Origin: a candidate division WOR-3 bacterium | GTDB lineage: Bacteria; Hydrothermota; Hydrothermia; JBDRYB01 | NCBI GenBank assembly: GCA_039803205.1 | Contig: JBDRYB010000003.1 | Span: 4,999-68,998, forward strand | DNA length: 64,000 nt | Direction: 5' to 3' | Part shown: one piece after another, positions 1 through 59,586 of the stretch | Layout of the letters: every line of letters starts with the position of its first letter | Numbering within the stretch: the stretch's first letter is position 1 | Notes under the pieces: model-generated | What the model saw: the letters and a program-made list of their open reading frames with translations, nothing else | Database searches by the model: none | What the model was told of the DNA's origin: nothing | Translations under genes and position numbers: made by a program

Positions 1-126
1 CGGATGGACAACGACCGGCGTGCCCGTGATCATAGGCGTTGTTTCGGTTGTTGCGTTTCCAGTAGCCATAGCGGCCTGCGTAGGCCTTCTCAACCTTCAA
101 ATGCCTCAGATCGCACAGAGAAAGGG

Positions 127-564
127 CTAATCCTGCTCTATTCCCCATTCCTTAATGAGCTCGCGGTTTATCTCGGAAGCGAGCTTGCCATCAGGCTGAG
201 GCTGGGTTTTCTTTGTGATGAGGCGCCTCGGCCCCTTGACGAACTCCCTCGTGGACATCACCCTTGCGCCCAGGGCTCCAGCCGTTCCCCTTATCTCCCT
301 GTCCTCGGTGACCACGACCACATCCCGAGGGTTCTGGCACCTCCTGAGCCAGCGCTTTATGTATTCATCAGCGCTTTCGCCCTTGGTGAAGACCGCGCCG
401 GGGAGGCTGTGGTGAACCCCTTCCCTTCCATCAAAGACGACTATGACCCTGTGAGGTGCATAGACCTTGGAGAAGGAGACCAGATATTCCCTTGCCTTTT
501 CCATCTCCATTTCCCTGAAACGGGTCGTGAGTATCAGATTGTAGCCGTCAACTATGTATATCAT
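127..564 (-). CDS. NYN/YacP-like (PIN-fold) predicted RNA-binding protein
   Basis: N-terminal MIYIVDGYNLI plus ...VIVVFDG... pattern typical of the YacP/Rae1-like NYN domain; ORF track. Confidence 0.55.
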   Translation of the reverse strand: MIYIVDGYNLILTTRFREMEMEKAREYLVSFSKVYAPHRVIVVFDGREGVHHSLPGAVFTKGESADEYIKRWLRRCQNPRDVVVVTEDREIRGTAGALGARVMSTREFVKGPRRLITKKTQPQPDGKLASEINRELIKEWGIEQD

Positions 565-7601: not shown

Positions 7602-7696
7602 GGTCGCGTTCGCCAACACTGTGCGTCAGGATCGCTCCCTGAGTCTTGAACCCCATAGAACGAACCCTTTACACTGTATTTCTTACGGGAGGAATC

Positions 7697-8392
7697 ATGA
7701 AAAAGCTCGCGTTCATTGTGGGATTGGTCCTTTTCGGTTGTGAGGGCTGGAACATGGGTGGTCCGGACAACCCGCCTGATCCGTATCCCCTGGTCGTCGG
7801 GAACTCATGGCATTACATAGCCATATCCGGGGACATTACTGACTGGTTCATTGACTCCGTCGCGGCAAAAGAGCCGTTTGGTTCTCATCAGAACGCCTAC
7901 AGGATAGTGGAGATAACATCGGGTAAGGGCGCGGCATTCTGGCTACCTGAGAGGATGAGGACAAGGGACATATTTGAGTGGCACGCCTTCTACGATGACG
8001 ATTACCTGGTTTTTGCTCTTGCTGATCCCTACGATACTATGGAAATAAGGCTTTTCAAGAGGGACCCTGATATCGGCGATAGGTGGGCTTCATACAGGGA
8101 GATTACTGTATACGATGAGGACGGGGATATGATAGAGGACACACTGATCTTCAGCCTAATGATGGAAATTGTTTCCTACGAGGATGTGATGACGCCTGCG
8201 GGAGAATTCGCATCATTCAGGAGCCTCAGAAGCGAATGGGATAGCCTGTGGCTTTCGGGAACTGGCGAATGGGAGGTTAATACCTACTATTGGGATTACT
8301 TCTTCTGGGCCCCCGGGGTTGGCATGATCAAGTATTGCGATTATTGGGATGAGAACCAGGGGTATCACCTTGAATCATACAACCTGAGATAA
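7697..8392 (+). CDS. Hypothetical lipoprotein
   Basis: MKKLAFIVGLVLFGCEG lipobox-like signal; acidic, Trp/Tyr-rich body. Confidence 0.4.
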   Translation: MKKLAFIVGLVLFGCEGWNMGGPDNPPDPYPLVVGNSWHYIAISGDITDWFIDSVAAKEPFGSHQNAYRIVEITSGKGAAFWLPERMRTRDIFEWHAFYDDDYLVFALADPYDTMEIRLFKRDPDIGDRWASYREITVYDEDGDMIEDTLIFSLMMEIVSYEDVMTPAGEFASFRSLRSEWDSLWLSGTGEWEVNTYYWDYFFWAPGVGMIKYCDYWDENQGYHLESYNLR

Positions 8393-8526: not shown

Positions 8527-8551
8527 CTCTCCCGGACAAGGAGGCGATAAT

Positions 8552-9355
8552 TTGGCTGATGAAGCAACTGCCACGAGAAAACTCAGGTGCACCCAGTGTG
8601 GAGCGCCCTTGGATGTTCCCAGGGGCGCGGACCACATAACCTGTCCGTTCTGCGGCTCTGCAATAGAGGTCAAGAGGGAGATATACCAGGGAGAGTTCTG
8701 GGCAAAGCCCGTCTTTGACAAGGCCGCCGCCACCGAGCGTTTCTTCCGGTGGACAGCTGAGAGGGACAAACCAGCGCCCTTCAACGAGAAAGTGGAATTG
8801 AGAAACATCGTCCCGGTCTGGGTCCCAACATGGCACATAAGGGAATGGAAGGCTGGGCCTGGAGGCGCCAGGGAAATAGCCTTCTCAATCCTGCCGGGCT
8901 TTGCTGACAGAAAGACATACGAGGCCCTTTCCCCGCAGAACCTCCCCCTCCAGGCCATAAAACCCTTGGAGGAACCCCTCCCCGGCGAATCAGCACAGCC
9001 GGATATGTCCCCCCAGGACAAGATAACCTTCCTCAAGAGCCGGGGCCAGGATGTTCACGAGCTCAGTCTGGTTTATGTTCCCCTATACCGAGTTGAATAC
9101 TCTTACAAGGGCAAGTCATACAGCCTGCTCATAGAGGGAATGACCGGCGGGGTTCACGCCATAGATTATCCGAAGAAGCCGGGCTGGCCATACTACCTCT
9201 ACACCGTCGCTTTCGGAATATTCTTCTTCTTGCTGTCCTTGCCCTTGTTTTCTGAGGACACGGTGGATCTGGGACTCACCCTCCTGTGTCTGGGATCTGT
9301 TCTGAGCCTGCCCGTATCAGCCCTCATAGCATATTTTCTGGTGAAGAAGGTGTGA
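8552..9355 (+). CDS. Zinc-ribbon membrane protein, paralog 1 of 3
   Basis: N-terminal CxxC-x14-CxxC (CTQCG...CPFCG); conserved YVPxW/LVYVPLYRVEYSYKG core shared with the next ORF; two C-terminal TM helices. Confidence 0.5.
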   Translation: MADEATATRKLRCTQCGAPLDVPRGADHITCPFCGSAIEVKREIYQGEFWAKPVFDKAAATERFFRWTAERDKPAPFNEKVELRNIVPVWVPTWHIREWKAGPGGAREIAFSILPGFADRKTYEALSPQNLPLQAIKPLEEPLPGESAQPDMSPQDKITFLKSRGQDVHELSLVYVPLYRVEYSYKGKSYSLLIEGMTGGVHAIDYPKKPGWPYYLYTVAFGIFFFLLSLPLFSEDTVDLGLTLLCLGSVLSLPVSALIAYFLVKKV

Positions 9356-9356
9356 G

Positions 9357-10298
9357 ATGGCCGAGACAGCAATAACACAAATAAAGGGCCTGAACTGCCC
9401 TAACTGCGGGGATGCTCTTGAGCTTGTGGCTGGTCAGGTTATAGTTGATTGCAAGTCATGCGGAACCCTCTTTAGGGTTGAGGGGCTTCTCGGAACCCCT
9501 CGCTTCCTGGTAAAGAACGCTCTTGATGCGGCGAGGGCTCAGGCTTTAGTCAAGGAATGGCTAAATAGGTGGGGGATCCCCGGTTCCTTCAAGAGAGGCG
9601 TGAAGGTTGAGTCCGCCAGACAGGTCTATGTTCCCATGTGGTTCACTGAGGGCCAGGTCATAGGCTGGCGCCTTGGCTACACCGAATCCACTGATTCCAA
9701 AGGTAATAAAACCAGAACATATCACGAATACAAAGTCAATAGACGGCTCAGGTGGTCAGACCCAGCAACAGGGATAGGGGAGCTATCCGTGACAACCATA
9801 AACCTGGAGGGCCTTCCCCTAAACCACTACTCGGAGGCGGAACGCCCTGAGGGCGAATACCTGGAAATAACCGAAGAGGAAGAGGCCTCGCGGAGAGAAG
9901 CCAAAGAAGGGCTCCTTGCGGCCGCCAGGAGCGGATACCGTTTGGACTATGTCACGGACGAGTTCCTTGAAGTGGTGGATCAGGACTTCTTCCTGGTCTA
10001 TTATCCCTTCTGGCAGGTTACATACTCCTACAAAAACCTGAAGTTCTCAGCGACCGTTGATGGCGCTAGGTCTCAGCTCAGATACGCGAGGGCTCCAAGG
10101 GCAACTGGGTTCCGGATATGGCCTGTTGTGCTAGGCTTGGCCCTTGTTGATCCTCTGATAATGGGCCTCGGAGTCCTCATAACCCAGCTTACCGAGGAGG
10201 GAAAGGTCCTCATAGTTGCTGTGGCACTCCTCTTCGTATTTAACCTTGGGCTAGGGAAAACCATGAAAGGAGGAGGAGAAATTGTCCTCAACAAGTAA
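9357..10298 (+). CDS. Zinc-ribbon membrane protein, paralog 2 of 3
   Basis: NCPNCG...CKSCG zinc ribbon; YVPMWF and LVYYPFWQVTYSYKN motifs homologous to paralog 1; C-terminal TM hairpin; starts 1 nt after paralog 1 stop. Confidence 0.5.
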   Translation: MAETAITQIKGLNCPNCGDALELVAGQVIVDCKSCGTLFRVEGLLGTPRFLVKNALDAARAQALVKEWLNRWGIPGSFKRGVKVESARQVYVPMWFTEGQVIGWRLGYTESTDSKGNKTRTYHEYKVNRRLRWSDPATGIGELSVTTINLEGLPLNHYSEAERPEGEYLEITEEEEASRREAKEGLLAAARSGYRLDYVTDEFLEVVDQDFFLVYYPFWQVTYSYKNLKFSATVDGARSQLRYARAPRATGFRIWPVVLGLALVDPLIMGLGVLITQLTEEGKVLIVAVALLFVFNLGLGKTMKGGGEIVLNK

Positions 10299-10836
10299 AG
10301 AGATAAGGCTTGTGCCGCTCAGATGCCCTGATTGCGATAAGCTCCTTGACAAGAAAGGGGAGCACTTCGCTACATGCAACGCCTGCGGAAAGACATACCA
10401 GGTCACGAGGGCTGGCATCAAGCCAACTCGGATAAGGACTGCAAAGGGCCAGGGCAAAACCCTTAGGCCTTTTTGGGTTTTCAGGTGCGATGTCCAGATA
10501 ACCCACCGGGATGCGAGCGGCAGCGTGGGCAGTTTCTTTGAAAAGCTCCTCGGAGGAGGCTCGGGAAGCGGCGAGATCAGGGTCTTTATTCCGGCCTATC
10601 ATCTTGATTCCGAGGAGATGTTTGAGGTTGCCATGAGAATGACCGAGCGACAACCCAAGTATGAGGCTATGGATATGGGCAACGCAATAGGCATAGTAAT
10701 ACCAGAGGATGAGGCCAAAAGGTATATCGTGCCCGTTGTCATGGGCCTGGAGGTGAGGCGAAAGGACACCCTCCACTCCATACGCTTCAATGTGAAGCTC
10801 AAGGAATCAAGCCTGGATTGGGTCTGGACCGAATAG
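10282..10836 (+). CDS. Zinc-ribbon protein, paralog 3 of 3 (soluble)
   Basis: LRCPDCD...CNACG zinc ribbon; RPFWVFRC and VFIPAYHL segments echo the YVPxW core; overlaps paralog 2 by 17 nt. Confidence 0.45.
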   Translation: MSSTSKEIRLVPLRCPDCDKLLDKKGEHFATCNACGKTYQVTRAGIKPTRIRTAKGQGKTLRPFWVFRCDVQITHRDASGSVGSFFEKLLGGGSGSGEIRVFIPAYHLDSEEMFEVAMRMTERQPKYEAMDMGNAIGIVIPEDEAKRYIVPVVMGLEVRRKDTLHSIRFNVKLKESSLDWVWTE

Positions 10837-12409: not shown

Positions 12410-13914
12410 GGGTTCCGAGGGGCCTATTTCGCAAACCGGGTTTCTGGTTTGTCGTTTATATCGTGTTCTGGCTCACGGCAAACCTCATAACGCTTACATG
12501 GTTCCCTGGATGGGACTTGAACCAGGATGAAGCCCTTCACGCCTCATGCGCTTGGGGGATCTGGGAATACGGCGCTGTTAGGTCAGGGTTCCTCCCAGGC
12601 TCATACCTCGGCCAATACGGCTACGGCATGCTATCTAGCTGGATCTACTATGGGATCCTCGCTCTCTTTTTGAAGATTTTCGGGATAGGCATCTTCTGGG
12701 CAAGGCTTCCCTCCCTCCTATCAGGGGCGGCAATCCTACTCTGCACTTACCAGATGGGCAAGGAATTCGGTTCCCCGGCATCAGGGCTTCTGGCGTCCGT
12801 TTTCACGGGCTTTGAGGTATTTTTCCTTAGGGCATCCCATTATACCCGCTCGGATGCCATGCTCGCGGCATGGATATGCGTCTCCGTCCTTCTCTTCCTG
12901 GTGGCCATGAGGCGAAAGGCCTGGTGGATTTTCGCGACCCTGGGCTTCGTATCTGGGATATCGGTTCTGGTAAGACCCTTGGGCATATTTCTGGTCCCGG
13001 GCCTCGCAATGCTCATGATCCTCTCGAGAAGATGGGCCGGCCTCGCTTGGTTCAGTTTGGGCGCGGCTTTGGCTGGTTTCATCATGTTCTTCACAAATTT
13101 CTTGCCCTTCAGGGATTATCCCATCCTCTCTGATATAGATGAGCCAAACCGCTCCTCCCCGATCTTCCTTCTCCTCACCCGCCAATTCCACCTCATACCC
13201 ATCGTGATTGAGTCTAAGACACGGTTTCTCCTTCTGATATTCTTAGGATGGCATGAACCCATTTCAAGGTTCCTCATTCTTCGCGTGACCCTCCTCGCCG
13301 CGACCCTGGGCGCTATGTTAAGGTTCCGGGACTATCCTCTTCTCTACGGTATCCCTCTAGCCCTCACGCTGAGCGCTATATTCTGCTGGCCCTTGCTCCG
13401 CGGCGGGTATCTGATATTCCTCGTTCCCTTGCTTGCTTTGGGGTTCTTCGTGGCGTTTCAAAGGGTCTCGTGGATAAGGTGGGGAATGCTGATATTCGGG
13501 GTCGTGGTGGGGTCTGTGGCCGCTTACAGGAGCACCGAGGAGTGCCGCGCGAACGCGCCCATTCGCAGGCTTGAGAGCATGGTTTTCCGCGAGATTCCCC
13601 CTGGTAAGACCCTCATGATCAATTGGTTCTGGTTCTGGTGGCCCCTTCACCACAGGAATCGGCTTGTCGCTATGGTGGATCAGGATTTCACATGGGGAGA
13701 TCTGAGCTTCGCGGATCTGGTAAAACGCCATGCCCCTGATTACATAGCAGTGGTCTTCTGGAAGGATTTCCTGATATGGCCGAGGCAGATGAACCATGGG
13801 GATACCCTCTATATTTCAGGGTTGGAAAAGATGGCGGGGTTTTACTTTCAGGGCGAGAACAGGTGGAGAGGGTTTGATAGCCTAATAATATACAAGGTTC
13901 CTGATGGTCTTTGA
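12406..13914 (+). CDS. GT-C fold glycosyltransferase, PMT_2/ArnT-like, copy 2 (tandem paralog)
   Basis: NQDEALHASCAWGIWEYG motif; YLGQYGYG and FGIxxFWAR blocks are identical to copy 1; 4-nt overlap with copy 1. Confidence 0.6.
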   Translation: MRVPRGLFRKPGFWFVVYIVFWLTANLITLTWFPGWDLNQDEALHASCAWGIWEYGAVRSGFLPGSYLGQYGYGMLSSWIYYGILALFLKIFGIGIFWARLPSLLSGAAILLCTYQMGKEFGSPASGLLASVFTGFEVFFLRASHYTRSDAMLAAWICVSVLLFLVAMRRKAWWIFATLGFVSGISVLVRPLGIFLVPGLAMLMILSRRWAGLAWFSLGAALAGFIMFFTNFLPFRDYPILSDIDEPNRSSPIFLLLTRQFHLIPIVIESKTRFLLLIFLGWHEPISRFLILRVTLLAATLGAMLRFRDYPLLYGIPLALTLSAIFCWPLLRGGYLIFLVPLLALGFFVAFQRVSWIRWGMLIFGVVVGSVAAYRSTEECRANAPIRRLESMVFREIPPGKTLMINWFWFWWPLHHRNRLVAMVDQDFTWGDLSFADLVKRHAPDYIAVVFWKDFLIWPRQMNHGDTLYISGLEKMAGFYFQGENRWRGFDSLIIYKVPDGL

Positions 13915-15823
13915 GAACCCGGAGGATTACAGAAAGCACTTCTCCAGACTCATAATGCTCGAGCGCTCGGAGGAAATGCGCGCCATGAGGGAGGAGATAC
14001 TCCGGCTATCTGGCGAGGAAAGGCAGGCTACCGGAAGGTGCGTGCTTGACATGAGCCTGTCAGACAAGGGGCCGTGGCTCGGGGGCAGAAGGCTGGTCTA
14101 CTTGTTCCGAGCGGACATGCCTGAGACCGAAATAGGGCCATCTGACATGGTCATGGTTTCTCGGGGCCGCCCGCTCACGGAGGGGATAGCCGGCGTGATC
14201 CTAAAGCGCACGGGAAACGGTTTCGTGGTTGTTCTGGATAGCCCAATATCCTGGAGTAAGGTAAGGGTTGACCTCCTCTCAAACGACATCACATACGAGA
14301 GGATGCTTTTTGCCCTGAAGAACATGGAGGGAGGGCTCTTCCCTTTGGGGTTCATCTTGGGCAAATCTGAGCCGCTCATCCAAAAGGAGGCCATCCGTAT
14401 TCCGGATCACCTCAATCCTTCCCAAGCAAAAGCCCTAATGCTTGCGATGGGATCAAGGCCCATCTTTCTGATCCACGGCCCTTTTGGCACGGGAAAGACC
14501 CTCACCCTCGTTGAAATAATAGCAAAAGCGCTTGAGAGGGGGGAGAGGGTTCTGGCTTGCGGGGACTCAAATGTTGCAACGGACAACCTCTTGGAAGGCC
14601 TGGTCAAAAAGGGCCTAGAACCTCTGAGAATAGGCCATCCCGCAAAGGTATCTCCCCACCTGGTTTCGCACAGCCTTGACGCGATGGTTGAGGCACATCC
14701 GGAATTTGGAAAGTGCCGAAAGCTCTGGGAGGCCATAGAGGAGCTCAAAGCAGAGCAGTCAAGGTATCCGAGGCCAGACCCAGGGTCCCGGCGTGGCTAC
14801 ACCTACCGTGAGATAGAGCGCCTTGCCAAGCATCACAAATCCGGACGCGGAATACCCAGGGAGAGAATAAAGGGAATGGCAGAATGGGTCCTGATCGAGA
14901 AGAAAATAACCGAACTTAGGCAGGAGGCTACCGAGAGGGAGGGCAGGATAATCAACGAGATAATCTCATCCGCCAGGGTGATATGCTCAACCTGCTCTGG
15001 CGCTGGCTCTGAGTTTCTTGAGGGGGAGGATTTTGACCTCCTGGTCCTTGACGAGGCAACCCAGGCAACTGAGCCATCGGCTCTCGTGCCCCTCGTAAAA
15101 GCAAGGAGGGCTGTTCTCGCCGGGGATCACAGGCAGTTGCCTCCGACAGTCATATCCAGGGAGGCTGAGCTGGGCGGCCTTGGCCTCAGTTTTTTCGAGA
15201 GGATGATAGAACTGCATCCGGAGGCTTCCACCCTCCTTGACATCCAATACAGAATGCATCCGGACATAATGGAATTCCCGGCGAAGGCCTTCTACGCCGG
15301 TAAGCTGAGATCCGCAAAAGGGCTTGAGAAAATGAGATTATCCGATCTCCTGGCCATCCCGGCAAGAAACCCGGTTCTCGGAGATAGACCTGTTTTTTTC
15401 GTGGACACCGGAGGAACCCACAGGGAAAGAAGGAGGAAGGGTTCCCCGTCAAGGGAGAACCCGGGCGAGGCCGAGATCGTCAAGGGACTGGTGAAGGAGC
15501 TGCTGGCCCTTGGCCTTGATCCCTCGGAGGTCGGGGTGATAGCGCCCTATGAGGACCAGGTGAAGCTTCTGAGAGGTCTCCTGCCCGATGGGGTTGAGGT
15601 AAAGACGGTTGATGGGTTCCAGGGAAGGGAGAAGGAGGTTATAATACTCTCTCTCGTCAGGTCAAACCCCAAGGGCAAGATAGGGTTTCTCAAGGACAGA
15701 CGCCGCCTGAATGTGGCGATAACCCGCGCGAGGAGGAAGCTCATAGTAATAGGGGACGCGGGGACCCTGGCGAGGGATAAGGTCTACAGGGATTTCGTGG
15801 GGTGGGCGAGGAGGATTAGCTAG
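13904..15823 (+). CDS. SF1 helicase, Upf1/DNA2/NAM7-like (AAA_11/AAA_12)
   Basis: Walker A GPFGTGKT, DEATQ box (LVLDEATQATE), motif V/VI DGFQGREKEVIILSLVRSN, and an N-terminal beta-barrel-like region. Confidence 0.8.
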   Translation: MVFENPEDYRKHFSRLIMLERSEEMRAMREEILRLSGEERQATGRCVLDMSLSDKGPWLGGRRLVYLFRADMPETEIGPSDMVMVSRGRPLTEGIAGVILKRTGNGFVVVLDSPISWSKVRVDLLSNDITYERMLFALKNMEGGLFPLGFILGKSEPLIQKEAIRIPDHLNPSQAKALMLAMGSRPIFLIHGPFGTGKTLTLVEIIAKALERGERVLACGDSNVATDNLLEGLVKKGLEPLRIGHPAKVSPHLVSHSLDAMVEAHPEFGKCRKLWEAIEELKAEQSRYPRPDPGSRRGYTYREIERLAKHHKSGRGIPRERIKGMAEWVLIEKKITELRQEATEREGRIINEIISSARVICSTCSGAGSEFLEGEDFDLLVLDEATQATEPSALVPLVKARRAVLAGDHRQLPPTVISREAELGGLGLSFFERMIELHPEASTLLDIQYRMHPDIMEFPAKAFYAGKLRSAKGLEKMRLSDLLAIPARNPVLGDRPVFFVDTGGTHRERRRKGSPSRENPGEAEIVKGLVKELLALGLDPSEVGVIAPYEDQVKLLRGLLPDGVEVKTVDGFQGREKEVIILSLVRSNPKGKIGFLKDRRRLNVAITRARRKLIVIGDAGTLARDKVYRDFVGWARRIS

Positions 15824-46760: not shown

Positions 46761-48245
46761 CTAGAATATTATGGCCTTATCTCCTATGAAGTGCTCCCCG
46801 AAACCTATGTGCCAGAAATATACGCCCGGCGAGATCAGCCCTGGGATGAACACGGAGTTCTTGCCCTCTCCGAATTCAGAAGTGAGGGAATAGACGAGCC
46901 TGCCGGAGGCATCGTATATCCTTATGGCCGTCTGACCGCTGGCCGGAAGGGTAAAGTGAATGGTCCTGCCGCTCATGTATCCGGCCAGTCCCTTCTGGCC
47001 CTCGGCTTCTTCAACCCCCACTACATCCACGGTGTAGAGAAAGCTGAGCTGAGGGGTCGTATTATACCAGTTTATGCAGACAGGCATCAGAACGAGGGTA
47101 TCGTAATCAAGGGTTGGAACAGTGAAGGCCGCATATCCCTTATCGTCAGCCTCATGTTCATACACATCCGAAGGAACAGTTGGCCCTGACCTGTAGCCTA
47201 TCACGAGGACCTTCCATGTATAGTCATCCTCCCCGTCAAAGTAAAAGAAGAGGCTATCCGCAGAACCCCATGAATCAAAGACGATGCAGTCGCATCCCCC
47301 TGGCCCCCTTATCGGCAGTATTCCCTCGTTCCCTGAAGCGGGATAGGTATGGTGAGCTCTCAGGGTAAATATGGAGGCCCACAGGTTGGCCTCTGACCAG
47401 TGCCACTGATCCCAGTGGCCCCCCGTGAACCACCTCCAGGCCGCGTATTCTGTTAGGGCGTTCTCAAGGCTATCCCCGTAATCCCTCCTGAGAACGCCAT
47501 CTATGTCCCTCATGGTATGATTGCCCCAGTGAAGCCCGAGGGTATCCCAGATGGTTCTTATGATGTCCCTGTTGTTCTCCCAGAACATAAGGAAAAGGGG
47601 CCAGACCACGCCAGCGTATTCGTAGAGGTCGCTGGGGTTTGTCATGTGGGTTATTTCGTAATTGGGCCTTCTCAGGGGCCCTACGCCATTTATATAGCCT
47701 ATGTAGGTGTTGTCATCCGGATACACCATCTCCTCGGCCCACACCGCGCAGTTCTCAAAGAACCAAGTTCCATCCGAAACAGTGTATGAGAACTGGCAAG
47801 CGTGCATGAACTCGTGGCAGACCGTGCTCTTCATGTATCCGCCCAGGTTATCATCAACGGCTATGTAGGAATAAAAGTCCTCCTGATACGGGTCAGGGCC
47901 CTCTCCCTCTGGAGCGCAGTAGCCGAGAACACCTCCTGTAAGCCCGATTATGTGTATGTCATACCGGTTATCACCTCCGGCTCCGTTGTCAGGAGGGGGC
48001 GCATCAAAGCCCAAAGAGTCAACCTCAATCTCCCAAGAATACTCAGCTATCTCCGCTATCTGCCTCGCGTAGTCCTCTGATACAGCATATGCGCCAGTTG
48101 TGTCGTAGTGGATCCTGAAGTGCGTCGTGTCGTATGTGGTCTGGTTTGCTGGGCGGGGCATCCTGATCCCGTGCTCAAGGATATGTGGCGTGCCACATAT
48201 CCAATTTCCAAATAAACATAGTCCAAAAACCATGCCTGACATCAA
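46761..48245 (-). CDS. Secreted putative zinc metalloprotease (HExxH...E) with T9SS-type C-terminal domain, copy A
   Basis: VCHEFMHACQ...ENCAVWAEE gluzincin-like; C-terminal GVYFWHIGFGEHFIGDKAIIF. Confidence 0.5.
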   Translation of the reverse strand: MMSGMVFGLCLFGNWICGTPHILEHGIRMPRPANQTTYDTTHFRIHYDTTGAYAVSEDYARQIAEIAEYSWEIEVDSLGFDAPPPDNGAGGDNRYDIHIIGLTGGVLGYCAPEGEGPDPYQEDFYSYIAVDDNLGGYMKSTVCHEFMHACQFSYTVSDGTWFFENCAVWAEEMVYPDDNTYIGYINGVGPLRRPNYEITHMTNPSDLYEYAGVVWPLFLMFWENNRDIIRTIWDTLGLHWGNHTMRDIDGVLRRDYGDSLENALTEYAAWRWFTGGHWDQWHWSEANLWASIFTLRAHHTYPASGNEGILPIRGPGGCDCIVFDSWGSADSLFFYFDGEDDYTWKVLVIGYRSGPTVPSDVYEHEADDKGYAAFTVPTLDYDTLVLMPVCINWYNTTPQLSFLYTVDVVGVEEAEGQKGLAGYMSGRTIHFTLPASGQTAIRIYDASGRLVYSLTSEFGEGKNSVFIPGLISPGVYFWHIGFGEHFIGDKAIIF

Positions 48246-48272
48246 AGGCTCCTTTTAGAGCTGTAGCCCTCT

Positions 48273-49778
48273 TTATCTTATTACGGCCTTGCCCTGACGA
48301 CTCTGACCAGCAAAGGAGAACTCCCAGAAATAGACGCCCCTGGCAATGGACCCTGGAAGAGAAAGCCTATTCTCGCCAGAGGGGAATTCTCCCACGAGAT
48401 CAAAGGCCTTTCTGCCCGTGGCATCGTAGAGCCTCAGGGAAACCTCGCCTCCCCTCGGAAGGTTAAAGAGGAAGTCGCGGCCCGCGGAGGCCACTCTCAG
48501 GAACTTATCAGGGACGCTCTCGTCCGCAGCAACGACATCAACCGTGTATTCAAAGTAAAGGTCTTGGGTATATGAACCATCAATCCAGTTGCAGACCACG
48601 GGAACCAAAATGAGGCTATCGTAATCCGCTGTGGGTATCTTGCTCGTGCCATAGCCGGTAATGTCGTCAACGGGTATTCTCATTGTATCGGATGGGTTCG
48701 CGGCCCCGGTCCTGTAGCCTATGACGAAGAGCTCCCAGTCATACCCATCAGAACCGTCAAAGTAGAAGTAAAGGGTGTCGTTGGGGTTGTAGTTGTAGAA
48801 AACCACATAGTCGCACCCGCCAGCGCCTCTCGGGTAGAATATCCCTTGGTTGCCGGAGGCGGGATAGGAACCATGATACTTCACAACCGTAGCGGGTGGA
48901 TAGAGGTTCGCCTCTGACCAGTGCCAATTATCCGCTCTCCCTCCGACGAACCATCTCCAAAGAGCGTAGTTCTCAAGGGCTGTCTTGAGATCGGTGCCGT
49001 AATAGGTGGAAAGGACATAGTCTATATCCGAATAGGAATGCGCGCCGACATTCACCCCGTATCTGTGCCAAATCATCTCTATGATAGCTGTATCTTTCAC
49101 CCAGAGCATCAGAAACAGGGCCCACACAACGCCGCCGTATTCGTAGAGATCGGTTGGATTGGTCATGTGGTTTATTTCGTAGTTGGGCCTCTTGAGGGGG
49201 CTTACCCCGTTCAGATAGCCCACATATTCGTTATCATTCGGGTAGCACATCTCCTCCCCCCACATGGCGCAGTTCTCCATGAACCATATGTTGGCCTGAG
49301 TTCCGAGTGAACGCTCGTATGCCATCTCGCAAGCGTGCATGAACTCGTGGACAACGGTTGCTCTGAGGACCGAAGCGTTCAGATTCTTGCCTATAACTAT
49401 GTAGCTCGTGTAGCTCTGGGGGTAGTTGCCGCCAGGGCTTTCCGGAGCAGTGTATCCGAGGACGCCGCCTGTCAGATACTGGACATACATGTCATACAGG
49501 CTATCCCCGCCCATAGACCCATCTGAAGGAGGCTTCTCAAAACCGAGCTGGGTCACATAGACACTCCACCCGTGCTCCGCATACATTGCTATGCTGTCCG
49601 CGTATGACTTCGGAACCGCGTGGGTCCCTGTTGTGTCATAGTGTATCTTGAAGTGGGTCGTGGTTATGTAGGTCTGGCAGGTTGGCCGGGCCTTCGGGCC
49701 CTTCTCATCAAACTCCTCTGCTATCTGAGCGGTGCCGCATATTCCCGGCACGCCAACGAGGGATAGTGCTATAAACAT
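48273..49778 (-). CDS. Secreted putative zinc metalloprotease (HExxH...E) with T9SS-type C-terminal domain, copy B (tandem paralog)
   Basis: VVHEFMHACE...ENCAMWGEE; THFKIHYDTTG N-terminal block shared with copy A; GGAGG SD; TATAAT about 25 nt upstream. Confidence 0.5.
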   Translation of the reverse strand: MFIALSLVGVPGICGTAQIAEEFDEKGPKARPTCQTYITTTHFKIHYDTTGTHAVPKSYADSIAMYAEHGWSVYVTQLGFEKPPSDGSMGGDSLYDMYVQYLTGGVLGYTAPESPGGNYPQSYTSYIVIGKNLNASVLRATVVHEFMHACEMAYERSLGTQANIWFMENCAMWGEEMCYPNDNEYVGYLNGVSPLKRPNYEINHMTNPTDLYEYGGVVWALFLMLWVKDTAIIEMIWHRYGVNVGAHSYSDIDYVLSTYYGTDLKTALENYALWRWFVGGRADNWHWSEANLYPPATVVKYHGSYPASGNQGIFYPRGAGGCDYVVFYNYNPNDTLYFYFDGSDGYDWELFVIGYRTGAANPSDTMRIPVDDITGYGTSKIPTADYDSLILVPVVCNWIDGSYTQDLYFEYTVDVVAADESVPDKFLRVASAGRDFLFNLPRGGEVSLRLYDATGRKAFDLVGEFPSGENRLSLPGSIARGVYFWEFSFAGQSRQGKAVIR

Positions 49779-49863
49779 GATCTACCTCCATTTCTGTTTT
49801 CCAAATTATAAAACATCTGGGTTCGGTTTTGCAACATGCAGGAGAGGTGGTTCGTGCTTGTCG

Positions 49864-51129
49864 CTAGACCCTTCTCCTCACCCTAATCCTCAGCCCCTTC
49901 ACCTCCTCAACGACGATGGTGTCGCCTTTGGATATGTCATCCGCGGCCTCCGCGAGCCACCTCTCTCCGTGGACGAAGACCTGGCCCTTCCCGCCGGCCC
50001 TTATGTCCTCAAGCGCCTCGCCCTCCTCGCCTATGAGGCCCTCCTTTCCCGTAGTGGGGCGCCACAGCTGGGCACGGATGGCCTTTCCAATGACGAAGAT
50101 AAACAGGAGAAGGGTGAGGATGACGACAACGGAGATGGAAACCCAGCTTATCCTTAAATATGGGACATTTATGTCAAAAAGCATGATAGAGCCGAAGAGA
50201 AGGGAGAGAACCCCTCCGGTGCCGAGTATGCCGTGGGAGGTTATCTTCACCTCCGCGAGCATGAGGCCAACCCCGAGGATGATGAGAAGGACGCCCGCGT
50301 AGTTCACGGGAAGGAGTTGAAAGGAGTAAAAAGCGAGGATCAGCGAAACCGCGCCCGTAACCCCTGGGAATATGCCGCCCGGGTGAGCGAGCTCAAACAG
50401 CAGGCCGTAAAGCCCTATCATCAGGAGGATATACGCTATATTTGGGTTAGCCAGTAGGGCAAGGAGGCTGTCCCTGAAACTCATTTCCCTCTTTATCACT
50501 CGTGCGCTTGCAAGCTCAAGCGTTTTCCCTCTCACGGGTCTGCCATCAAGGGCTATGAGCAACTCTTCCGGGCTGCTGGCGACCAGGTCAGCTATCCCAG
50601 CGGCAACAGCGCTGTCAGCGGAGAGGCTTTTGGAGTGTCTGACGAACCTCTCTGCCCACTCAGCCGGCCTCCCCGTCTTCGCGTAGAGGGAGGCGAGGTA
50701 AGCAACGGCGTCGTTGGTGATTTTCTCAAGCATGACCGAATCAGCCTTCTCCCCCATGGACACAGGATGAGCGGCTCCAATGTTTGTTCCCGGAGCCATG
50801 GCCAAGAAGTCAGCGGCCCCAGCGATAAAAACACCGGCTGACGCGCACCTTCCGCCAGAAGGGTAAACGAAAACGCATATGGGAACCTCAGATGCTATCT
50901 CCTCCTTCACTATGGTTCTCATGGATTCATCAAGGCCCCCAGGGGTGTCCATGTTTATTAGGATGAGGTCAACATGCTCCGAGTTCGCCTTTCTAATTTC
51001 CCTGGCGAGGTATTCCGTAACAGGCGGCGAAATTGCCCCGGAAACCGTGAGCTGGACCACAGTAGCTGAGAGAAGTGCCGAGCAAAGGGTCATGATTATA
51101 TTATAATCCACCCTTGGCGCGAGATTCAC
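49864..51129 (-). CDS. NfeD-like membrane-bound ClpP-class serine protease
   Basis: N-terminal ClpP-like domain, central TM bundle, C-terminal OB-fold NfeD region (GERWLAEAADDISKGDTIVVEEVKGLRIRV). Confidence 0.65.
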   Translation of the reverse strand: MNLAPRVDYNIIMTLCSALLSATVVQLTVSGAISPPVTEYLAREIRKANSEHVDLILINMDTPGGLDESMRTIVKEEIASEVPICVFVYPSGGRCASAGVFIAGAADFLAMAPGTNIGAAHPVSMGEKADSVMLEKITNDAVAYLASLYAKTGRPAEWAERFVRHSKSLSADSAVAAGIADLVASSPEELLIALDGRPVRGKTLELASARVIKREMSFRDSLLALLANPNIAYILLMIGLYGLLFELAHPGGIFPGVTGAVSLILAFYSFQLLPVNYAGVLLIILGVGLMLAEVKITSHGILGTGGVLSLLFGSIMLFDINVPYLRISWVSISVVVILTLLLFIFVIGKAIRAQLWRPTTGKEGLIGEEGEALEDIRAGGKGQVFVHGERWLAEAADDISKGDTIVVEEVKGLRIRVRRRV

Positions 51130-51226
51130 TACCTTGAAACGCTAACTCCCTAACCAGCTGGTTCTACTCCTCCCAGCAAAATTTCCAACCCGGAGGACGA
51201 AACCGCCAAGGATCAAGGTTTTACGG

Positions 51227-52813
51227 CTATTCTCCGAAGGCTCTCTTTCTAAGTCTTCTGTAGTATTGCCTGTATTCATCAATGTAACGGTCATAAGGAA
51301 ATTCAGGCAAGAGATCGTCCACTGCTAGCTCCCGGGCCTTTGCCAGAAGCGATTCTTTTTCATCCTGCTCATGGGACGATTCGGATCTGACAACCAAGTT
51401 TTCCAGCTCGGAAAGGTCTGTCCAGACATCGCCCTCAAGCTGGTAAAAATCGTGCTTGTGCACAATGAGAACATTTCTATCAAGGACCCTCCTGGCAAAG
51501 GATACTGCCTGATAAAGCAGTTCCCGGTTCTTCCTGTCATATCTCTTTCTAGGCCAGAGGAGGTAGAAGAGATGATCCGCAGCTATCCTGTGTTTTGAGG
51601 ACAGCAGGAGATAAATAAGAAACAAGGCTGATTTTCTGCTTCGCCATTCCAGAGGTTTTATTTCTTTCCCCTCCACATATATTCTTAGCTTTCCAATGAG
51701 ATAAGCCCTGATGCCCTTGTCTTTGTAGCTCTCTGATATTCCCGTCACCATAGGTTCCACCCTCAAGATGAACTCTCCGAGAATGGGGTCCTTTTTGGAA
51801 TTAGGATATAGGGGGATGAGGTGGCCTATGAGTTTCAAAGATTTGGTAAAGACAGGGCTATCAGTTTCCCAGGCCAAATAGGCGGCAGTAAGGCCCGAGA
51901 AAAAGGCTTCTGTGTTCTGATAAGCCTTAATATAATTGTTCGTGGCCTCCAAAAGACCTTCTGCGGTTTCCAGATCACTTTCCTTAAGAAGTGCTTCGGC
52001 CTCTTGGGCCGCGGCTTGTTCAGCCCAGGCTCCCTTTCTTGCGAGTTTTATTGCTTTCCTTATGAGCGCTTTGGGCGGCGGCTCAAGTCCTGTAAGCCGA
52101 GAGATCTCAAGGGCCTTGGCCAGAGGGACAATTGCATAGACCGAACCAAAACTCAGATGCCCCTCAGCGGATTTCATAAAATAAACTATACTCTCGCGAA
52201 GCTCTCCTGCTATTCTCAAACAGATGGCTTTAATTTCCTCCAGGACGCAATAAAAGATGCCCTTCTTTTCACTTCTCATAAGCGCATCGGTCATCCTAAT
52301 GGCTTTATGTGGGTTTCCGAAAAATAACTCATATATTATCAGATAATATTGAGCGGTTACGAGACGAATATCTCTGAGTTTCCCTTTGGATTTGATGCGG
52401 GACACCTCACTAAAACAATCGCGGTATTTGCCTTTCATAAAAAGGATGTGGCAAAAAGCAAGAGAAATTGCGTCTTGTGAATCTTCATCACCCAGCTCTT
52501 GGGCGATATCTAGCGCTCTAAGATAATACCTTTCAGATAATTCCAGTTCTCCCAAATCTACATACGCGTTGCCCATCAACCTCAAAAGGTAAAGAGTTGA
52601 AGCAGGATCATCACTGAGACGACTGAGAAGCTGTTGACCCTTCTTGATGGTCTGAGTAAACATATTTTTGTTGATACATATCCCCACATTAGCCAAGGCA
52701 AATGCTAAGGGATCATCCCTTTTGAGCCGCTCTAAATAGGCAACAAGCTTGTAGCTCATGCCTTCTAGCATGAACATCATGACAGCCTTCTTGGCCTTCT
52801 CGGCTCTGGTCAT
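51227..52813 (-). CDS. TPR-repeat protein with C-terminal OmpR/SARP-type winged-helix + BTAD-like segment (putative regulator)
   Basis: TPR-like helices; LRIYVEGKEIKPLEWRSRKSALFLIYLLLS...LFYLLWP...YQAVSFARRVL resembles trans_reg_C/SARP wHTH. Confidence 0.4.
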   Translation of the reverse strand: MTRAEKAKKAVMMFMLEGMSYKLVAYLERLKRDDPLAFALANVGICINKNMFTQTIKKGQQLLSRLSDDPASTLYLLRLMGNAYVDLGELELSERYYLRALDIAQELGDEDSQDAISLAFCHILFMKGKYRDCFSEVSRIKSKGKLRDIRLVTAQYYLIIYELFFGNPHKAIRMTDALMRSEKKGIFYCVLEEIKAICLRIAGELRESIVYFMKSAEGHLSFGSVYAIVPLAKALEISRLTGLEPPPKALIRKAIKLARKGAWAEQAAAQEAEALLKESDLETAEGLLEATNNYIKAYQNTEAFFSGLTAAYLAWETDSPVFTKSLKLIGHLIPLYPNSKKDPILGEFILRVEPMVTGISESYKDKGIRAYLIGKLRIYVEGKEIKPLEWRSRKSALFLIYLLLSSKHRIAADHLFYLLWPRKRYDRKNRELLYQAVSFARRVLDRNVLIVHKHDFYQLEGDVWTDLSELENLVVRSESSHEQDEKESLLAKARELAVDDLLPEFPYDRYIDEYRQYYRRLRKRAFGE

Positions 52814-53283: not shown

Positions 53284-54822
53284 ATGAACAACTTGCTGTT
53301 AGCTGTCATGGTTTCGCAGAACCTCTTCGCGAAGACCTATGGAGGGACGGGTAAGGAGTATGCCTATTCGGTAGCCAGGACCTCGGATGGCGGATATATA
53401 GTCGCTGGGGGCACGGCCAGCTACGGTGCTGGACAGGATGACTTCCTGGTCATCAAGATCTCGCCCACAGGAACCCCTGAATGGACAAGGACCTTCGGGG
53501 GAACAAATATGGATGCCGCCTATTCCATAATCCAGACAACCGATGGGGGATATATGGTTGCTGGGGAAACCCGCAGTTTCGTGGCGGGAACCGCTGCTAA
53601 CATTGATTTTCTTGCGCTGAAGATCTCATCCACCGGAAACCCTGAGTGGGCAAGGACCTTTGGAGGAGCAAATGAGGATTTCTGTCGATCCATAATCCAG
53701 ACATCAGATGGGGGATACGCACTTGTAGGGTTCACCAGAAGCTATGGTGTTGGGCTGGATGACTTTTTGATCATCAAAATCTCGTCTGCTGGGGCCCTTG
53801 AATGGGCAAAGACATTCGGCGGAACGAATTATGATAATGCCTTCTCCATAGTACAGACCATAGACGGTGGTTATGTCGTTTCGGGTAGCACCATGAGCTT
53901 CGGGGCCGGCTACTGGGACCTTCTCTTGCTAAAGCTGTCGCCCACGGGAACCCTTGAGTGGGCGAGAACCTACGGGGGAGAAAATAATGACTTTACTACC
54001 TTACCCGTGATACATACCGCTGACAGTGGTTTCATGTTCACGGGGCACACGGAGAGCTTTGGGGCCGGTGAAGCGGATCTGCTTGTCATGGAACTTTCGT
54101 CCACCGGGGCTCCGGAGTGGACAAGAACCTTCGGAGGAACCGACTTGGATTGCGCTCGCTCTATAACCAGAACCGGGGATGGAGGGTTCGCGCTCGCAGG
54201 ATGGACATTGAGTTTTGGGGCTGGTTCTTGTGATTTCTTCATGATAAAGATTTCGTCCGCAGGAAGCCTTGAATGGGCAAGGACTTTCGGAGGGGAAGGT
54301 TGGGACGATCCCTTCTCTATGATCCAGACTCAGGATGGCGCCTACACGGTTGCAGGATGGACAACGGGCAGTTTTGATGGAAGTGACCCTGGCGATTTCC
54401 TTGTGATCAGGCTTGACCAGAACGGCAATTACCTGGATTGCATTCAGAGCTGTTCTCCTACCACAGGGCCAGCTTCCATTTCAATATCATCCCCTGGCGC
54501 GGACCTTATTCCCTGTAATCCTTCTATAACCAACCCGAATCCAAGCGTCACGACTCCCGGACTTCAGGTATATGATGTCTGTCCACCCAGTTCTATTGAG
54601 GAGCCAGACAAAGTCCAAACATGGCCCCAGATCATTTGCGTATCTGATATAAGAGGGGTTATTTTCCATGCTTCCGGGGAAATGGAGATAAAGATCTACT
54701 CATCCGATGGAAGGCTGTTCTGCTCCGAACAACTGCAGAGGGGACAGACCTCCATTCCTCTTGGCCAAGGAGTCTATCTCTGGCAAGCAGGACCCTATAA
54801 AGGAAAGGCTGTTGTAAGATGA
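53284..54822 (+). CDS. SBBP-like beta-propeller repeat protein with T9SS-type C-terminal domain (array member)
   Basis: MNNLLLAVMVSQNLFAKTYGGT N-terminus; about 50-aa repeats; Cys/Pro/Thr linker; C-terminal IPLGQGVYLWQAGPYKGKAVVR. Confidence 0.65.
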   Translation: MNNLLLAVMVSQNLFAKTYGGTGKEYAYSVARTSDGGYIVAGGTASYGAGQDDFLVIKISPTGTPEWTRTFGGTNMDAAYSIIQTTDGGYMVAGETRSFVAGTAANIDFLALKISSTGNPEWARTFGGANEDFCRSIIQTSDGGYALVGFTRSYGVGLDDFLIIKISSAGALEWAKTFGGTNYDNAFSIVQTIDGGYVVSGSTMSFGAGYWDLLLLKLSPTGTLEWARTYGGENNDFTTLPVIHTADSGFMFTGHTESFGAGEADLLVMELSSTGAPEWTRTFGGTDLDCARSITRTGDGGFALAGWTLSFGAGSCDFFMIKISSAGSLEWARTFGGEGWDDPFSMIQTQDGAYTVAGWTTGSFDGSDPGDFLVIRLDQNGNYLDCIQSCSPTTGPASISISSPGADLIPCNPSITNPNPSVTTPGLQVYDVCPPSSIEEPDKVQTWPQIICVSDIRGVIFHASGEMEIKIYSSDGRLFCSEQLQRGQTSIPLGQGVYLWQAGPYKGKAVVR

Positions 54823-54874
54823 GATTCTCTACACCAGACCAAGAGGCGAGTAGCTTCCGGGATATGCTTTACAA

Positions 54875-56164
54875 TCATTCCCCTGGATTCAGGACGATCG
54901 TCCTCGTATCCACTATATTTCCATGAGATGAGAGGGCCAGGAAGCAAACGCCCTTACCTATGCCATCAAGGCTAATGGAGTGCCTTCCGGGTTCAAGAGA
55001 CCAGGTTCTCAGTTCCCTGCCAATAGGATCATAAGCTGTCAGTTGGCCTGCCTTGGTAAGCCTGATTTCAACGGAAACAGTAGAGAGCATAACGATGCTG
55101 TTCTCCTTTGGCCCTGAACTCTCTCCAATCTCAAGGGGAGGGCATCCTCTGTGCGCGTAGTAGAGATCGCCAGACCTGTAATATGCTATCCTGGGGCAGT
55201 CATCTGAGCCCACCTGAAGGCTCCTGTCTGTCATCCAGTAACCTGCCCATGTATTGGGGTCAGCAACCTCTATCGTCCAAGATGATCCATTCCACACAGC
55301 ATATTTTAGCCTCTGGTTGGTCACATCGTAGTAGGCTATGTGCGGCCTGTCCTGGGAATCCAGGGCCAAAGAGGTATAACGCCCGACATCGCCCGCGGTG
55401 TCAACCGTCTGTATCTGCCAGGATGAGCCGTTCCAGTAGGCGTATTTGAGGTCCCGCTTGGCCGCTGATGAATCGTAGTAGGATATGTGGGGCCTGTCCT
55501 GGGAGTCAATAGCGATGGATGTCCAGAGGCCAACGGATCCAGCTGTGTCAACCTTCTGGGTCTGCCAGGATGAGCCATTCCAATAGGCGTATTTTAGATC
55601 ACGAGCACTGGCCCCGAAGCTGTAATAGGCTATGTGAGGCCTGTCTTGGGAATCCAGAGCCAAAGAGGTGCAAATCCCCAGTATATCTACCTGCTGTAGC
55701 ACCCATGCCGAGCCGTTCCAGTAGGCATACTGAATTATGCTGTAGCCATTATCAGAATAGGCTATGCACGGTCTATCCAGAGAATTAAGGGCCAGAGATG
55801 TCCAGAGCGTATTCCCTACGGTATCAACAGTCTGTCTCTGCCACGAGGAACCGTTCCAGTAAGCATACTTGAGATCCGAGTTCACGCCGTCTATCCAGTA
55901 GCTGTATGAGATGCACGGCCTATCCTGGGAATCCAGGTCCACAGAGACATAGCCACCAGAGGCGCTCCCTATGGTGTCAACCCTCTGCGTCTGCCACCCT
56001 GAGCCGGCCCATCTCGCGTATTTCACGCCATATGTTGTGAAATCGCAGTAGGCTATGTGCGGCCAGTCCTGAGAGTCCAGAGCCAGGGCCGCGTAGTAGC
56101 CAACATCTCCAGGCGCGTCCACCTGGAGCCAGCTCCACTGAGCTAAAAAGAGCCATACCATCAT
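54875..56164 (-). CDS. Secreted protein with about 8 novel ~47-aa repeats (KYAYWNGSSWQxQTVDTxGxVGxYTSLALDSQDRPHIAYYD)
   Basis: Start trimmed to MMVWLF with GGAGG SD; beta-propeller-like periodicity; C-terminal region ...GKGVCFLALSSHGNIVDTRTIVLNPGE. Confidence 0.5.
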   Translation of the reverse strand: MMVWLFLAQWSWLQVDAPGDVGYYAALALDSQDWPHIAYCDFTTYGVKYARWAGSGWQTQRVDTIGSASGGYVSVDLDSQDRPCISYSYWIDGVNSDLKYAYWNGSSWQRQTVDTVGNTLWTSLALNSLDRPCIAYSDNGYSIIQYAYWNGSAWVLQQVDILGICTSLALDSQDRPHIAYYSFGASARDLKYAYWNGSSWQTQKVDTAGSVGLWTSIAIDSQDRPHISYYDSSAAKRDLKYAYWNGSSWQIQTVDTAGDVGRYTSLALDSQDRPHIAYYDVTNQRLKYAVWNGSSWTIEVADPNTWAGYWMTDRSLQVGSDDCPRIAYYRSGDLYYAHRGCPPLEIGESSGPKENSIVMLSTVSVEIRLTKAGQLTAYDPIGRELRTWSLEPGRHSISLDGIGKGVCFLALSSHGNIVDTRTIVLNPGE

Positions 56165-56356
56165 CTTAAAAACCTCCTCGTTTAAGGTTTTTGTTTTCAA
56201 GGGAAACACGGGCTGACCGGAGGTCGTTCTGAAGAACGAGCCGTTCCGGCCGATACCCCTGTATTTTCTCGCACAGGGTCGCGGCAAACACGATCATTCC
56301 CAGCATAATCCCAGTATGAATTATCACGAATGGGTTTGCGAGCCTTTCCCTTATAT

Positions 56357-57883: not shown

Positions 57884-57924
57884 GTTAAAGCCTCCGTATG
57901 GTTTTTGTTTTCAAAGCAAATGCA

Positions 57925-57970
57925 GGCCGGCCGGGTTTTAACGGGAGGTGCAGAGATCCCCGGCCGGCCC
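57925..57970 (-). terminator. Conserved intergenic GC hairpin (ggccggccggg / cccggccggcc) flanked by T/A-rich tracts, followed by GGAGG SD of next gene
   Basis: Same element at 59533-59579 and 61155-61200; lies between the stop of the upstream gene and the start of the downstream gene. Confidence 0.45.
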
Positions 57971-57977
57971 TTTGTTT

Positions 57978-59492: not shown

Positions 59493-59532
59493 GATGAAAC
59501 CTCCGTATGGTTTTTGTTTTCAAGGCAAATGT

Positions 59533-59579
59533 GGGCCGGCCGGGTTTTAACGGGAGGTGCAGAGATTCCCGACCGGCCC
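59533..59579 (-). terminator. Conserved intergenic GC hairpin element (copy 2)
   Basis: gggccggccggg ... cccgaccggccc, with one mismatch relative to the other copies. Confidence 0.45.
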
Positions 59580-59586
59580 TTGGTTT

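Follow-up and report, generated by a model that had tools for sequence, protein, structure and literature searches.

Three adjacent genes, ORF1, ORF2, and ORF3, in a 64,000-nt stretch of DNA from a candidate division WOR-3 bacterium (contig JBDRYB010000003.1; hereafter, the window) form an ancient, widespread, and near-obligate cassette. Two of the encoded proteins, ORF1 and ORF2, very probably belong to the superfamily of the Bacillus subtilis membrane protein YdjG, also called SamG. We think it reasonably probable that the trio forms a heteromeric membrane platform of YdjG-like paralogs that faces the cytoplasm and docks or regulates an SPFH protein. The family itself is already known, having been noticed in comparative genomics and partly characterized experimentally in one organism; the trio is a diverged form of it. 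A full-text literature search turned up no description of the three-paralog cassette.

ORF1 and ORF2 are very probable relatives of YdjG/SamG

In B. subtilis, YdjG is a product of the pspA-ydjGHI (pspA-samGHI) operon. The membrane proteins YdjG and YdjH interact and are required for the soluble SPFH protein YdjI and for PspA to form membrane foci (Scholz et al., 2021; PMC8581546). YdjI/SamI is an SPFH protein of the Band_7_1 type. Later work renamed YdjGHI as SamGHI and argued that SamI restrains SamGH signaling (Baur et al., 2026; bioRxiv 10.64898/2026.02.06.704340). The published architecture of YdjG is a zinc ribbon followed by a YpeB-like part and a transmembrane (TM) segment (PMC11237479).

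One class of relatives, which we call G-type and which occurs in Firmicutes, Spirochaetes, and Proteobacteria, has two ribbons and one TM helix. The architecture of these proteins and their PspA/TPM/SPFH context are those published for YdjG/SamG, and the YdjG N-terminus MIISYKCPNC (taken from a published cloning primer; PMC8581546) fits the G-type consensus M..YKCPxCG. In Lachnospiraceae (L115), PspA_IM30 is followed directly by a G-type gene and then by a Band_7_1-type SPFH gene, while in Eubacterium (L112) TPM_phosphatase directly precedes the G-type gene. The order is SPFH, G, TPM in Enterococcus gallinarum and SPFH, G in Vibrio, Comamonas, and Treponema (L110).

Comparison of the family of ORF2 (b-type) with the G-type family using hhalign gave a probability of 99.8% (E = 6.9e-28) over 257 columns, which span the ribbon through TM helix 1. 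Annotated proteins of Vibrio, Enterococcus, and Comamonas matched hidden Markov models (HMMs) of both the ORF1 family (a-type) and the b-type at 1e-17 to 1e-26, and a b-type protein matched a Vibrio gene at 2e-8 by tblastn. As in the trio, the G-type CxxC...CxxC ribbon is followed by a helix, a long hairpin ("VYVPFW"), a variable insert, and then the TM part, and the G-type "LLPVW..Y.Y.GK.Y...NGQTG" corresponds to LVYxPxWxVxYSYK...DG of the trio. The two groups also have the Band_7_1 SPFH partner in common (matches beside G-type genes, 7e-80 to 2e-20), and neither is covered by Pfam or NCBIfam.

The trio differs from the G-type in several ways. Each of its proteins has a single ribbon, the a- and b-type proteins carry a two-helix hairpin, and ORF3 (c-type) has no TM helix. 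There are three diverged paralogs in fixed order, one of them truncated, and the loci have no recurrent PspA or TPM (YdjH) but often a LIMLP_15305-like helical protein instead. An earlier note on this DNA, made from the sequence alone, had called the core of these proteins unassignable. This holds for Pfam and NCBIfam, which have no family for it, but not beyond them, as the core is homologous to the two-ribbon proteins linked to PspA, TPM, and SPFH. A strong profile match to a characterized family, which the note had said would count against its view, was thus found in part, by way of the YdjG-type homology.

The a-b-c cassette is conserved across distant lineages

The three genes lie on the same strand, with a gap of 1 nt between ORF1 and ORF2 and an overlap of 17 nt between ORF2 and ORF3. 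With a Shine-Dalgarno-like site at every start (Table 1), this spacing bears out the translational coupling that the earlier note had proposed, and the positions it gave for the three ORFs are correct.

We fetched 80 metagenome loci by the ORF2-type motif alone and classified all ORFs in them with the a-, b-, and c-type HMMs, restricting co-occurrence counts to loci whose contig leaves enough flank. (ORF1 and ORF2 match the models of their own types at E = 1e-88 and E = 2e-106, respectively.) An a-type gene was upstream of the b-type gene in 60/62 loci and a c-type gene downstream in 55/56, and the full trio, in fixed order, was present in 45/47. Conserved co-occurrence of the three paralogs in other genomes, on which the earlier note had made its reading depend, is thus the rule. 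The sole exceptions are two b-type genes lacking an upstream a-type gene and one lacking a downstream c-type gene (L036, L041, and L107). The region downstream in L107 contains a short tandem repeat and may be an assembly artifact.

In distant loci (L023, on a 7.6-Mb contig, L024, and L026), three adjacent unannotated genes are one-to-one orthologs of ORF1, ORF2, and ORF3 with their order kept. The a-type protein of L023 matches ORF1 at 7e-24, and the b- and c-type proteins of L024 match ORF2 and ORF3 at 3e-37 and 7e-18. The resemblance goes far beyond chance, as orthologous trios recur with unchanged order in distant lineages. Close relatives also retain the trio although their upstream genes differ. 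Strict co-occurrence, fixed order, and frequent start/stop overlap are what a heteromeric complex predicts, and we infer that the a-, b-, and c-type proteins form one. Outside Firmicutes, the fixed three-paralog cassette appears to be the commonest YdjG-type form.

An SPFH gene is the dominant neighbor of the trio

Clustering of neighbors over 51 non-redundant trio loci revealed that the dominant partner is a gene of ~390 aa, directly upstream on the same strand, that encodes a Band_7_1 SPFH protein (PF13421, 1e-42); some of these proteins carry ribbons at the C-terminus. Among the 32 non-redundant trios whose upstream sequence extends for at least 1.5 kb, 18 have this gene directly upstream, mostly with gaps of 0-36 nt. 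The GC content of SPFH-trio loci ranges from 0.29 to 0.61. At 16 loci, an all-helical protein of ~175-184 aa with the motifs IPGYxGY and GYSGxFD is encoded one gene beyond the SPFH gene. Its sole match, which is sub-threshold, is to NCBIfam NF047596 (LIMLP_15305 family, Leptospira). Examples upstream of SPFH in trio operons are L048 4859-5395 and L065 7503-8054, with ~24 other loci. Other recurrent neighbors of the trio outside WOR-3 include MutS, a DinB-like protein, and a methyltransferase.

Two ideas about these partners were rejected. The helical protein does not resemble PspA (hhalign 0.6%), nor does it have a relative in the PDB. Pairing of three SPFH ribbons with the three ribbon proteins was dismissed because 31/42 SPFH partners lack any CxxC.

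Conservation and predicted topology suggest a cytoplasm-facing scaffold

ORF1, ORF2, and ORF3 all begin with a CxxC...CxxC ribbon, and their Pfam and NCBIfam matches are zinc-ribbon models only. The BLASTP alignment of ORF1 with ORF2 (E = 3e-12) is full-length and takes in the VPxW and LVYxPxWxVxYSYK blocks. Both proteins end in a TM hairpin of two hydrophobic helices, of which ORF3 has none. BLASTP matched ORF3 to ORF1 and ORF2 in the ribbon only. When the family profiles of ORF2 and ORF3 were compared by hhalign, the probability was 96.4% (E = 1.3e-9) over 157 columns comprising the ribbon, the PFW hairpin, and a "PA" motif. Three parts of the a- and b-type proteins are missing from ORF3: the post-ribbon helix, the second of the hairpin units, and both TM helices. 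Judging from these alignments, ORF3 is a truncated, soluble, and remote paralog of ORF1 and ORF2. In all of these respects, namely the three ribbons, the blocks common to ORF1 and ORF2, their TM hairpins, and a shorter soluble ORF3 with "FW/IPAY echoes," the description in the earlier note proved accurate.

An AlphaFold2 model of ORF1, built with 105 homologs, had a predicted local distance difference test score (pLDDT) of 92.3 and a predicted template modeling score (pTM) of 0.82. The predicted elements are listed in Table 1. A Foldseek search of the PDB with ORF1 returned nothing significant, and the ORF3 model had no PDB fold match.

In both ORF1 and ORF2, basic residues precede the first TM helix and follow the second, and the loop between the helices is short (~6-8 residues) and acidic. 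For ORF1, the sequences are PKKPG before the first helix, SEDTVD in the loop, and VKKV in the tail. This charge distribution points to an N-in/C-in topology, which would place the ribbons and the alpha+beta domains of both proteins in the cytoplasm. The tail of ORF2, with its conserved GGGE, reads FRYGGE in distant orthologs.

Ribbon cysteines are invariant in the a/b and c alignments. Across the 105 sequences, the only invariant or near-invariant positions are the four cysteines, two prolines, one tyrosine, and one further proline, and none of the conserved positions in this alignment is a candidate catalytic residue. As conservation is limited to Cys, Pro, Tyr, and Trp residues of the ribbon and hairpins, which are not plausibly catalytic, a role as a scaffold or adaptor is more likely than one as an enzyme.

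A model for the trio and what weighs against it

In the model that we favor, the three proteins would be made from one translationally coupled transcript. Each would consist of a zinc ribbon, YpeB/PepSY-like alpha+beta units on long "VPxW" beta-hairpins, and a membrane anchor, with ORF3 a truncated version. ORF1 and ORF2 would insert into the cytoplasmic membrane through their C-terminal helical hairpins, leaving the soluble parts inside, and would pair and bind soluble ORF3 to form a sub-membrane platform, for which the conserved cytoplasmic tail of ORF2 is a candidate contact with ORF3. By analogy with the genetic evidence for YdjG/YdjH-YdjI-PspA, the platform may dock and/or regulate a soluble SPFH protein of the Band_7_1 type on the cytoplasmic side of the membrane, and may then help to sense membrane stress or maintain the membrane. 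In the genome of the window, where the SPFH partner is not adjacent, it would be encoded elsewhere or absent.

Several observations count against this model. Formation of the a-b-c heteromer and its topology are both inferred. The 64-kb window contains no SPFH, PspA, TPM, or LIMLP_15305-like gene, and ~14/32 non-redundant trios with upstream room lack an adjacent SPFH gene, so the function of the trio may be independent of SPFH. Neither TPM nor PspA is among the recurrent neighbors at the 51 loci. In B. subtilis, two-hybrid contact to YdjI and PspA is made by YdjH, the TPM protein, and not by YdjG (PMC8581546). Finally, YdjG was placed in the G-type by its published description, its primer-derived N-terminus, and its gene context.

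A more ambitious form of the platform model, which we consider possible but doubtful, is that the trio forms the core of an undescribed, widespread sub-membrane machine of bacteria, whose hetero-oligomeric base of three YdjG-like paralogs nucleates a Band_7_1 SPFH assembly together with the LIMLP_15305-like protein, replacing the PspA/TPM arm known from Firmicutes. If true, SPFH-based maintenance of membranes would have a second solution, one independent of PspA.

Somewhat less probable still is that the trio acts autonomously as a sensor of membrane stress or a signaling complex, resembling the proposed "SamGH sensor," with TM hairpins that perceive a membrane or envelope cue and an SPFH protein, where present, that is only a brake and not the cargo. 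Baur et al. (2026) infer that SamI restrains SamGH signaling and that SamGH remains active in the absence of SamI, and nearly half of the trios, including that of the window, have no adjacent SPFH gene. Stress-type neighbors also occur sporadically, as in L026, with three HSP20 genes and one PLD gene, and in L028, where Band_7 and Lon-like AAA+ genes surround a fused relative. However, the a-, b-, and c-type proteins and the recurrent neighbors contain no output domain (kinase, helix-turn-helix, or cyclase), and periplasmic loops of only ~6-8 residues leave little with which to sense anything outside the membrane. The sensor explanation also overlaps largely with the platform model, as only the direction of control differs.

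In all domains of life, the organization and repair of membranes depend centrally on SPFH proteins and PspA/ESCRT-III, and tethering of soluble bacterial SPFH proteins is known from one B. subtilis operon only. Because the trio is repeatedly coupled to a Band_7_1 SPFH protein and a helical protein, its members are candidates for SPFH membrane anchors in many phyla.

Gene context argues against roles in glycosylation and phage defense

In the window and in three WOR-3 relatives (L005, L006, and L031), one or two PMT_2 GT-C glycosyltransferase genes and an SF1 helicase gene come immediately after the trio on the same strand; these genes recur in the WOR-3 relative L003 as well. This arrangement could mean that the trio serves the two downstream glycosyltransferases as an accessory or regulatory module in envelope glycosylation. 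We regard this as improbable. The earlier note had asked whether the trio always lies beside GT-C or SF1 helicase genes, and it does so only in close WOR-3 relatives: neither gene adjoins the trio in any of ~75 non-WOR-3 loci. The WOR-3 synteny is expected from shared descent (the proteins are 57-89% identical), and the soluble domains of the trio are predicted to be cytoplasmic, which speaks against a link to GT-C enzymes.

The helicase, an SF1/Upf1-like protein with AAA_11/AAA_12 domains (13904-15823), matches PADLOC MkoA (Mokosh) at 9e-94, and zinc-ribbon proteins with TM segments are common effectors in conflict systems. That the trio and this MkoA-like helicase form an anti-phage defense or conflict system nevertheless seems very improbable. 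The MkoA match spans only the generic Upf1-like helicase core. The trio proteins match no PADLOC-DB v2 model (best E values 0.058 and 0.085, ribbon only), PHROGs matches are likewise at the level of the ribbon, and tblastn with ORF2 found no match in 50,697 phage records. Neighbors in other lineages are housekeeping genes, among them DnaG/RpoD (L023), MutS, and dnaX/recR (Enterococcus), and the stability of the trio gene order across phyla is not island-like. A mobile origin was likewise rejected.

The family is large and absent from domain databases

Sequence searches of Pfam, NCBIfam, PADLOC, PHROGs, and the PDB with ORF1-3 gave ribbon-level matches only. No Pfam model covers the core in 45 diverse family members, nor does NCBIfam contain one for it. 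PepSY (Pfam PF03413) has no match in ORF1-3, even at E <= 1, and none in the 45 members, and DUF4178 has no match in ORF1-3. The closest database proteins to the trio are "MAG: hypothetical protein ABIM88_06770/75/80" (metagenome-assembled genome, MAG; 98-100% identity), and a word-indexed homolog search returned close WOR-3/Hydrothermia orthologs only.

Exhaustive searching by HMMER with a profile built jointly from ORF1 and ORF2 recovered 4151 representatives of 50%-identity clusters at E <= 1e-3, of which 835 reached E <= 1e-10. Most match from the ribbon through the core. Among the best 148 representatives, 68 are b-type (median 349 aa) and 37 are a-type (median 265 aa), both with one ribbon and two TM helices, and 43 are G-type (median 375 aa), with two ribbons and one TM helix. 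The YdjG-type anchor family thus comprises hundreds of 50%-identity clusters and is in no domain database. Domain models would annotate thousands of zinc-ribbon proteins that are now "hypothetical" or misnamed "TFIIB/ribosomal protein L37AE."

Automatic names of relatives, such as "TFIIB-type zinc ribbon-containing protein" and "ribosomal protein L37AE/S27E," together with matches of some members to Zn_Ribbon_TF-like models, would fit nucleic-acid-binding or transcription-related proteins. This too is highly unlikely for the trio: similarity to transcription-type ribbons is confined to the ~35-residue ribbon, the remainder being an alpha+beta module and TM helices, while the trio has no helix-turn-helix or other DNA-binding domain and its gene context is membrane-related.

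Comparison with other systems

We compared the alpha+beta units of the trio with PepSY, the YpeB C-terminal domain, and YpmB, which have cystatin-like or NTF2-like helix-on-sheet folds. Scores were modest, and Foldseek found nothing. The trio hairpins are unusually long (~20 residues) compared to those of PepSY-type domains, and whereas classical PepSY domains are extracytoplasmic, those of the trio are predicted to be cytoplasmic.

A profile scan of genome contigs gave mostly ribbon-only tblastn matches to Gemmatimonadota DUF4178 proteins, which we rejected as family members because alignment is limited to the ribbon. Like the trio, DUF4178 proteins with zinc ribbons (L010 and L013) have a similar ribbon, a C-terminal TM segment, and an adjacent gene encoding Band_7_1 and a zinc ribbon, but their middle domain is DUF4178 rather than the VPxW hairpin module. 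These proteins seem to make up an analogous class of partners for that SPFH type. In a Gemmatimonadaceae locus (L010, 8002-13214), and similarly in L013 and L015, a Band_7_1 plus zinc-ribbon gene is followed by a gene for a 649-aa protein and then by one for a spermidine-synthase-like membrane protein. The 649-aa protein of L010 has two ribbons and two DUF4178 domains, with a TM segment at the C-terminus. Neighborhoods of this kind resemble those in a comparative-genomics study of the PSP system (PMC11237479).

Escherichia coli PspB and PspC offer a functional analogy to the proposed role of the trio, since these small proteins of the membrane tether a soluble effector of the membrane-stress response to its inner face or regulate it there (bioRxiv 10.64898/2026.02.06.704340). 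They are unlike the trio in having no sequence or fold relationship to it, no ribbons, and a different effector. The haloarchaeal zinc-ribbon Z-ring anchor CdpC was rejected as a relative, as its architecture differs.

Variant loci and other genes of the window

The features of the trio are collected in Table 1.

Table 1. Positions of the trio genes and translation signals in the window, and predicted elements of the encoded proteins (residue numbers)
Feature	Position	Strand	Description
ORF1, a-type	8552-9355	+	267 aa, TTG start
ORF2, b-type	9357-10298	+	313 aa, ATG start
ORF3, c-type	10282-10836	+	184 aa, TTG start, no TM helix
Shine-Dalgarno-like AAGGAGG	8538..8544	+	7 nt 5′ of the ORF1 TTG (sequence read directly)
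Shine-Dalgarno-like GAAGGTG	9346..9352	+	within the ORF1 3′ end, 5′ of the ORF2 ATG
Strong Shine-Dalgarno-like GGAGGAGGAG	10269..10278	+	within the ORF2 3′ end, 5′ of the ORF3 TTG
ORF1 zinc ribbon	residues ~8-51		Cys13/16/31/34
ORF1 first unit	residues 57-68; 82-101/107-115		helix; long beta-hairpin (VPVWVPTW)
ORF1 second unit	residues 154-163; 167-185/188-195		helix; long hairpin (LVYVPLYRVEYSYKGKSY...EGMTG)
ORF1 TM hairpin	residues 212-233/235-266		
ORF2 N-terminal part, in order			zinc ribbon (Cys14/17/32/35); helix; VYVPMW hairpin; ~45-residue insert relative to ORF1; conserved "PA..GE" motif
ORF2 C-terminal part, in order			LVYYPFWQVTYSYKNLKF..VDG; APR; two TM helices; conserved, predicted cytoplasmic tail (K)GGGE(I/V)
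ORF3 zinc ribbon			Cys15/18/32/35
ORF3 hairpin and strand	residues 60-79; 96-104		long PFWVF hairpin; IRVFIPAY strand
ORF3 C-terminal part	residues 110-123, 142-158; 163-183		helices; long hairpin

Several loci depart from the simple trio. L096 (6792-11577) contains two complete a-b-c trios in tandem. In L025 (3552-7698), genes for the helical protein and an apparently split SPFH protein precede a-b-c, which is followed by an extra b-like gene of 565 aa (P0108). The trio of L026 (3613-8648) lies in a stress and membrane-lipid context, as the three HSP20 genes are in tandem before it and the PLD-family gene after it is cardiolipin-synthase-like. A 411-aa fusion of a ribbon and PYW module with a c-type module is present in L028 (7001-8236) and L029 (415-1650; P0191). 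This SPFH-linked family variant lies between a Band_7_1 plus zinc-ribbon gene, another Band_7 gene, and an AAA/Lon-like gene of 1141 aa. In a Halobacteria archaeon MAG (L016, 8102-10639), an 845-aa HerA/DUF87-type ATPase ends in two copies of the hairpin motif (LVYYPLWQVTYDY...YIDGITGEIV and KVYYPYWVAMYED...VFDGITGRP). This suggests that the hairpin module may also be an add-on to archaeal ATPases, the L016 match being weak and at the level of the motif only.

The gene directly upstream of the trio in the window (7646-8392) has a 248-aa product whose N-terminus (MKKLAFIVGLVLFGC) is lipoprotein-like and whose sole match, a weak one, is DUF3108-like. This gene adjoins the trio in no other locus examined, and the window genes upstream of the trio recur nowhere. 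Elsewhere in the window, five ORFs of ~470-512 aa form a run (53284-61113; also 46761-52813), four with DUF5122 beta-propeller repeats and one with BNR_4, and three further ORFs of ~500 aa nearby have no Pfam match. These ORFs may represent an expansion of paralogs that encode secreted or surface propeller proteins.

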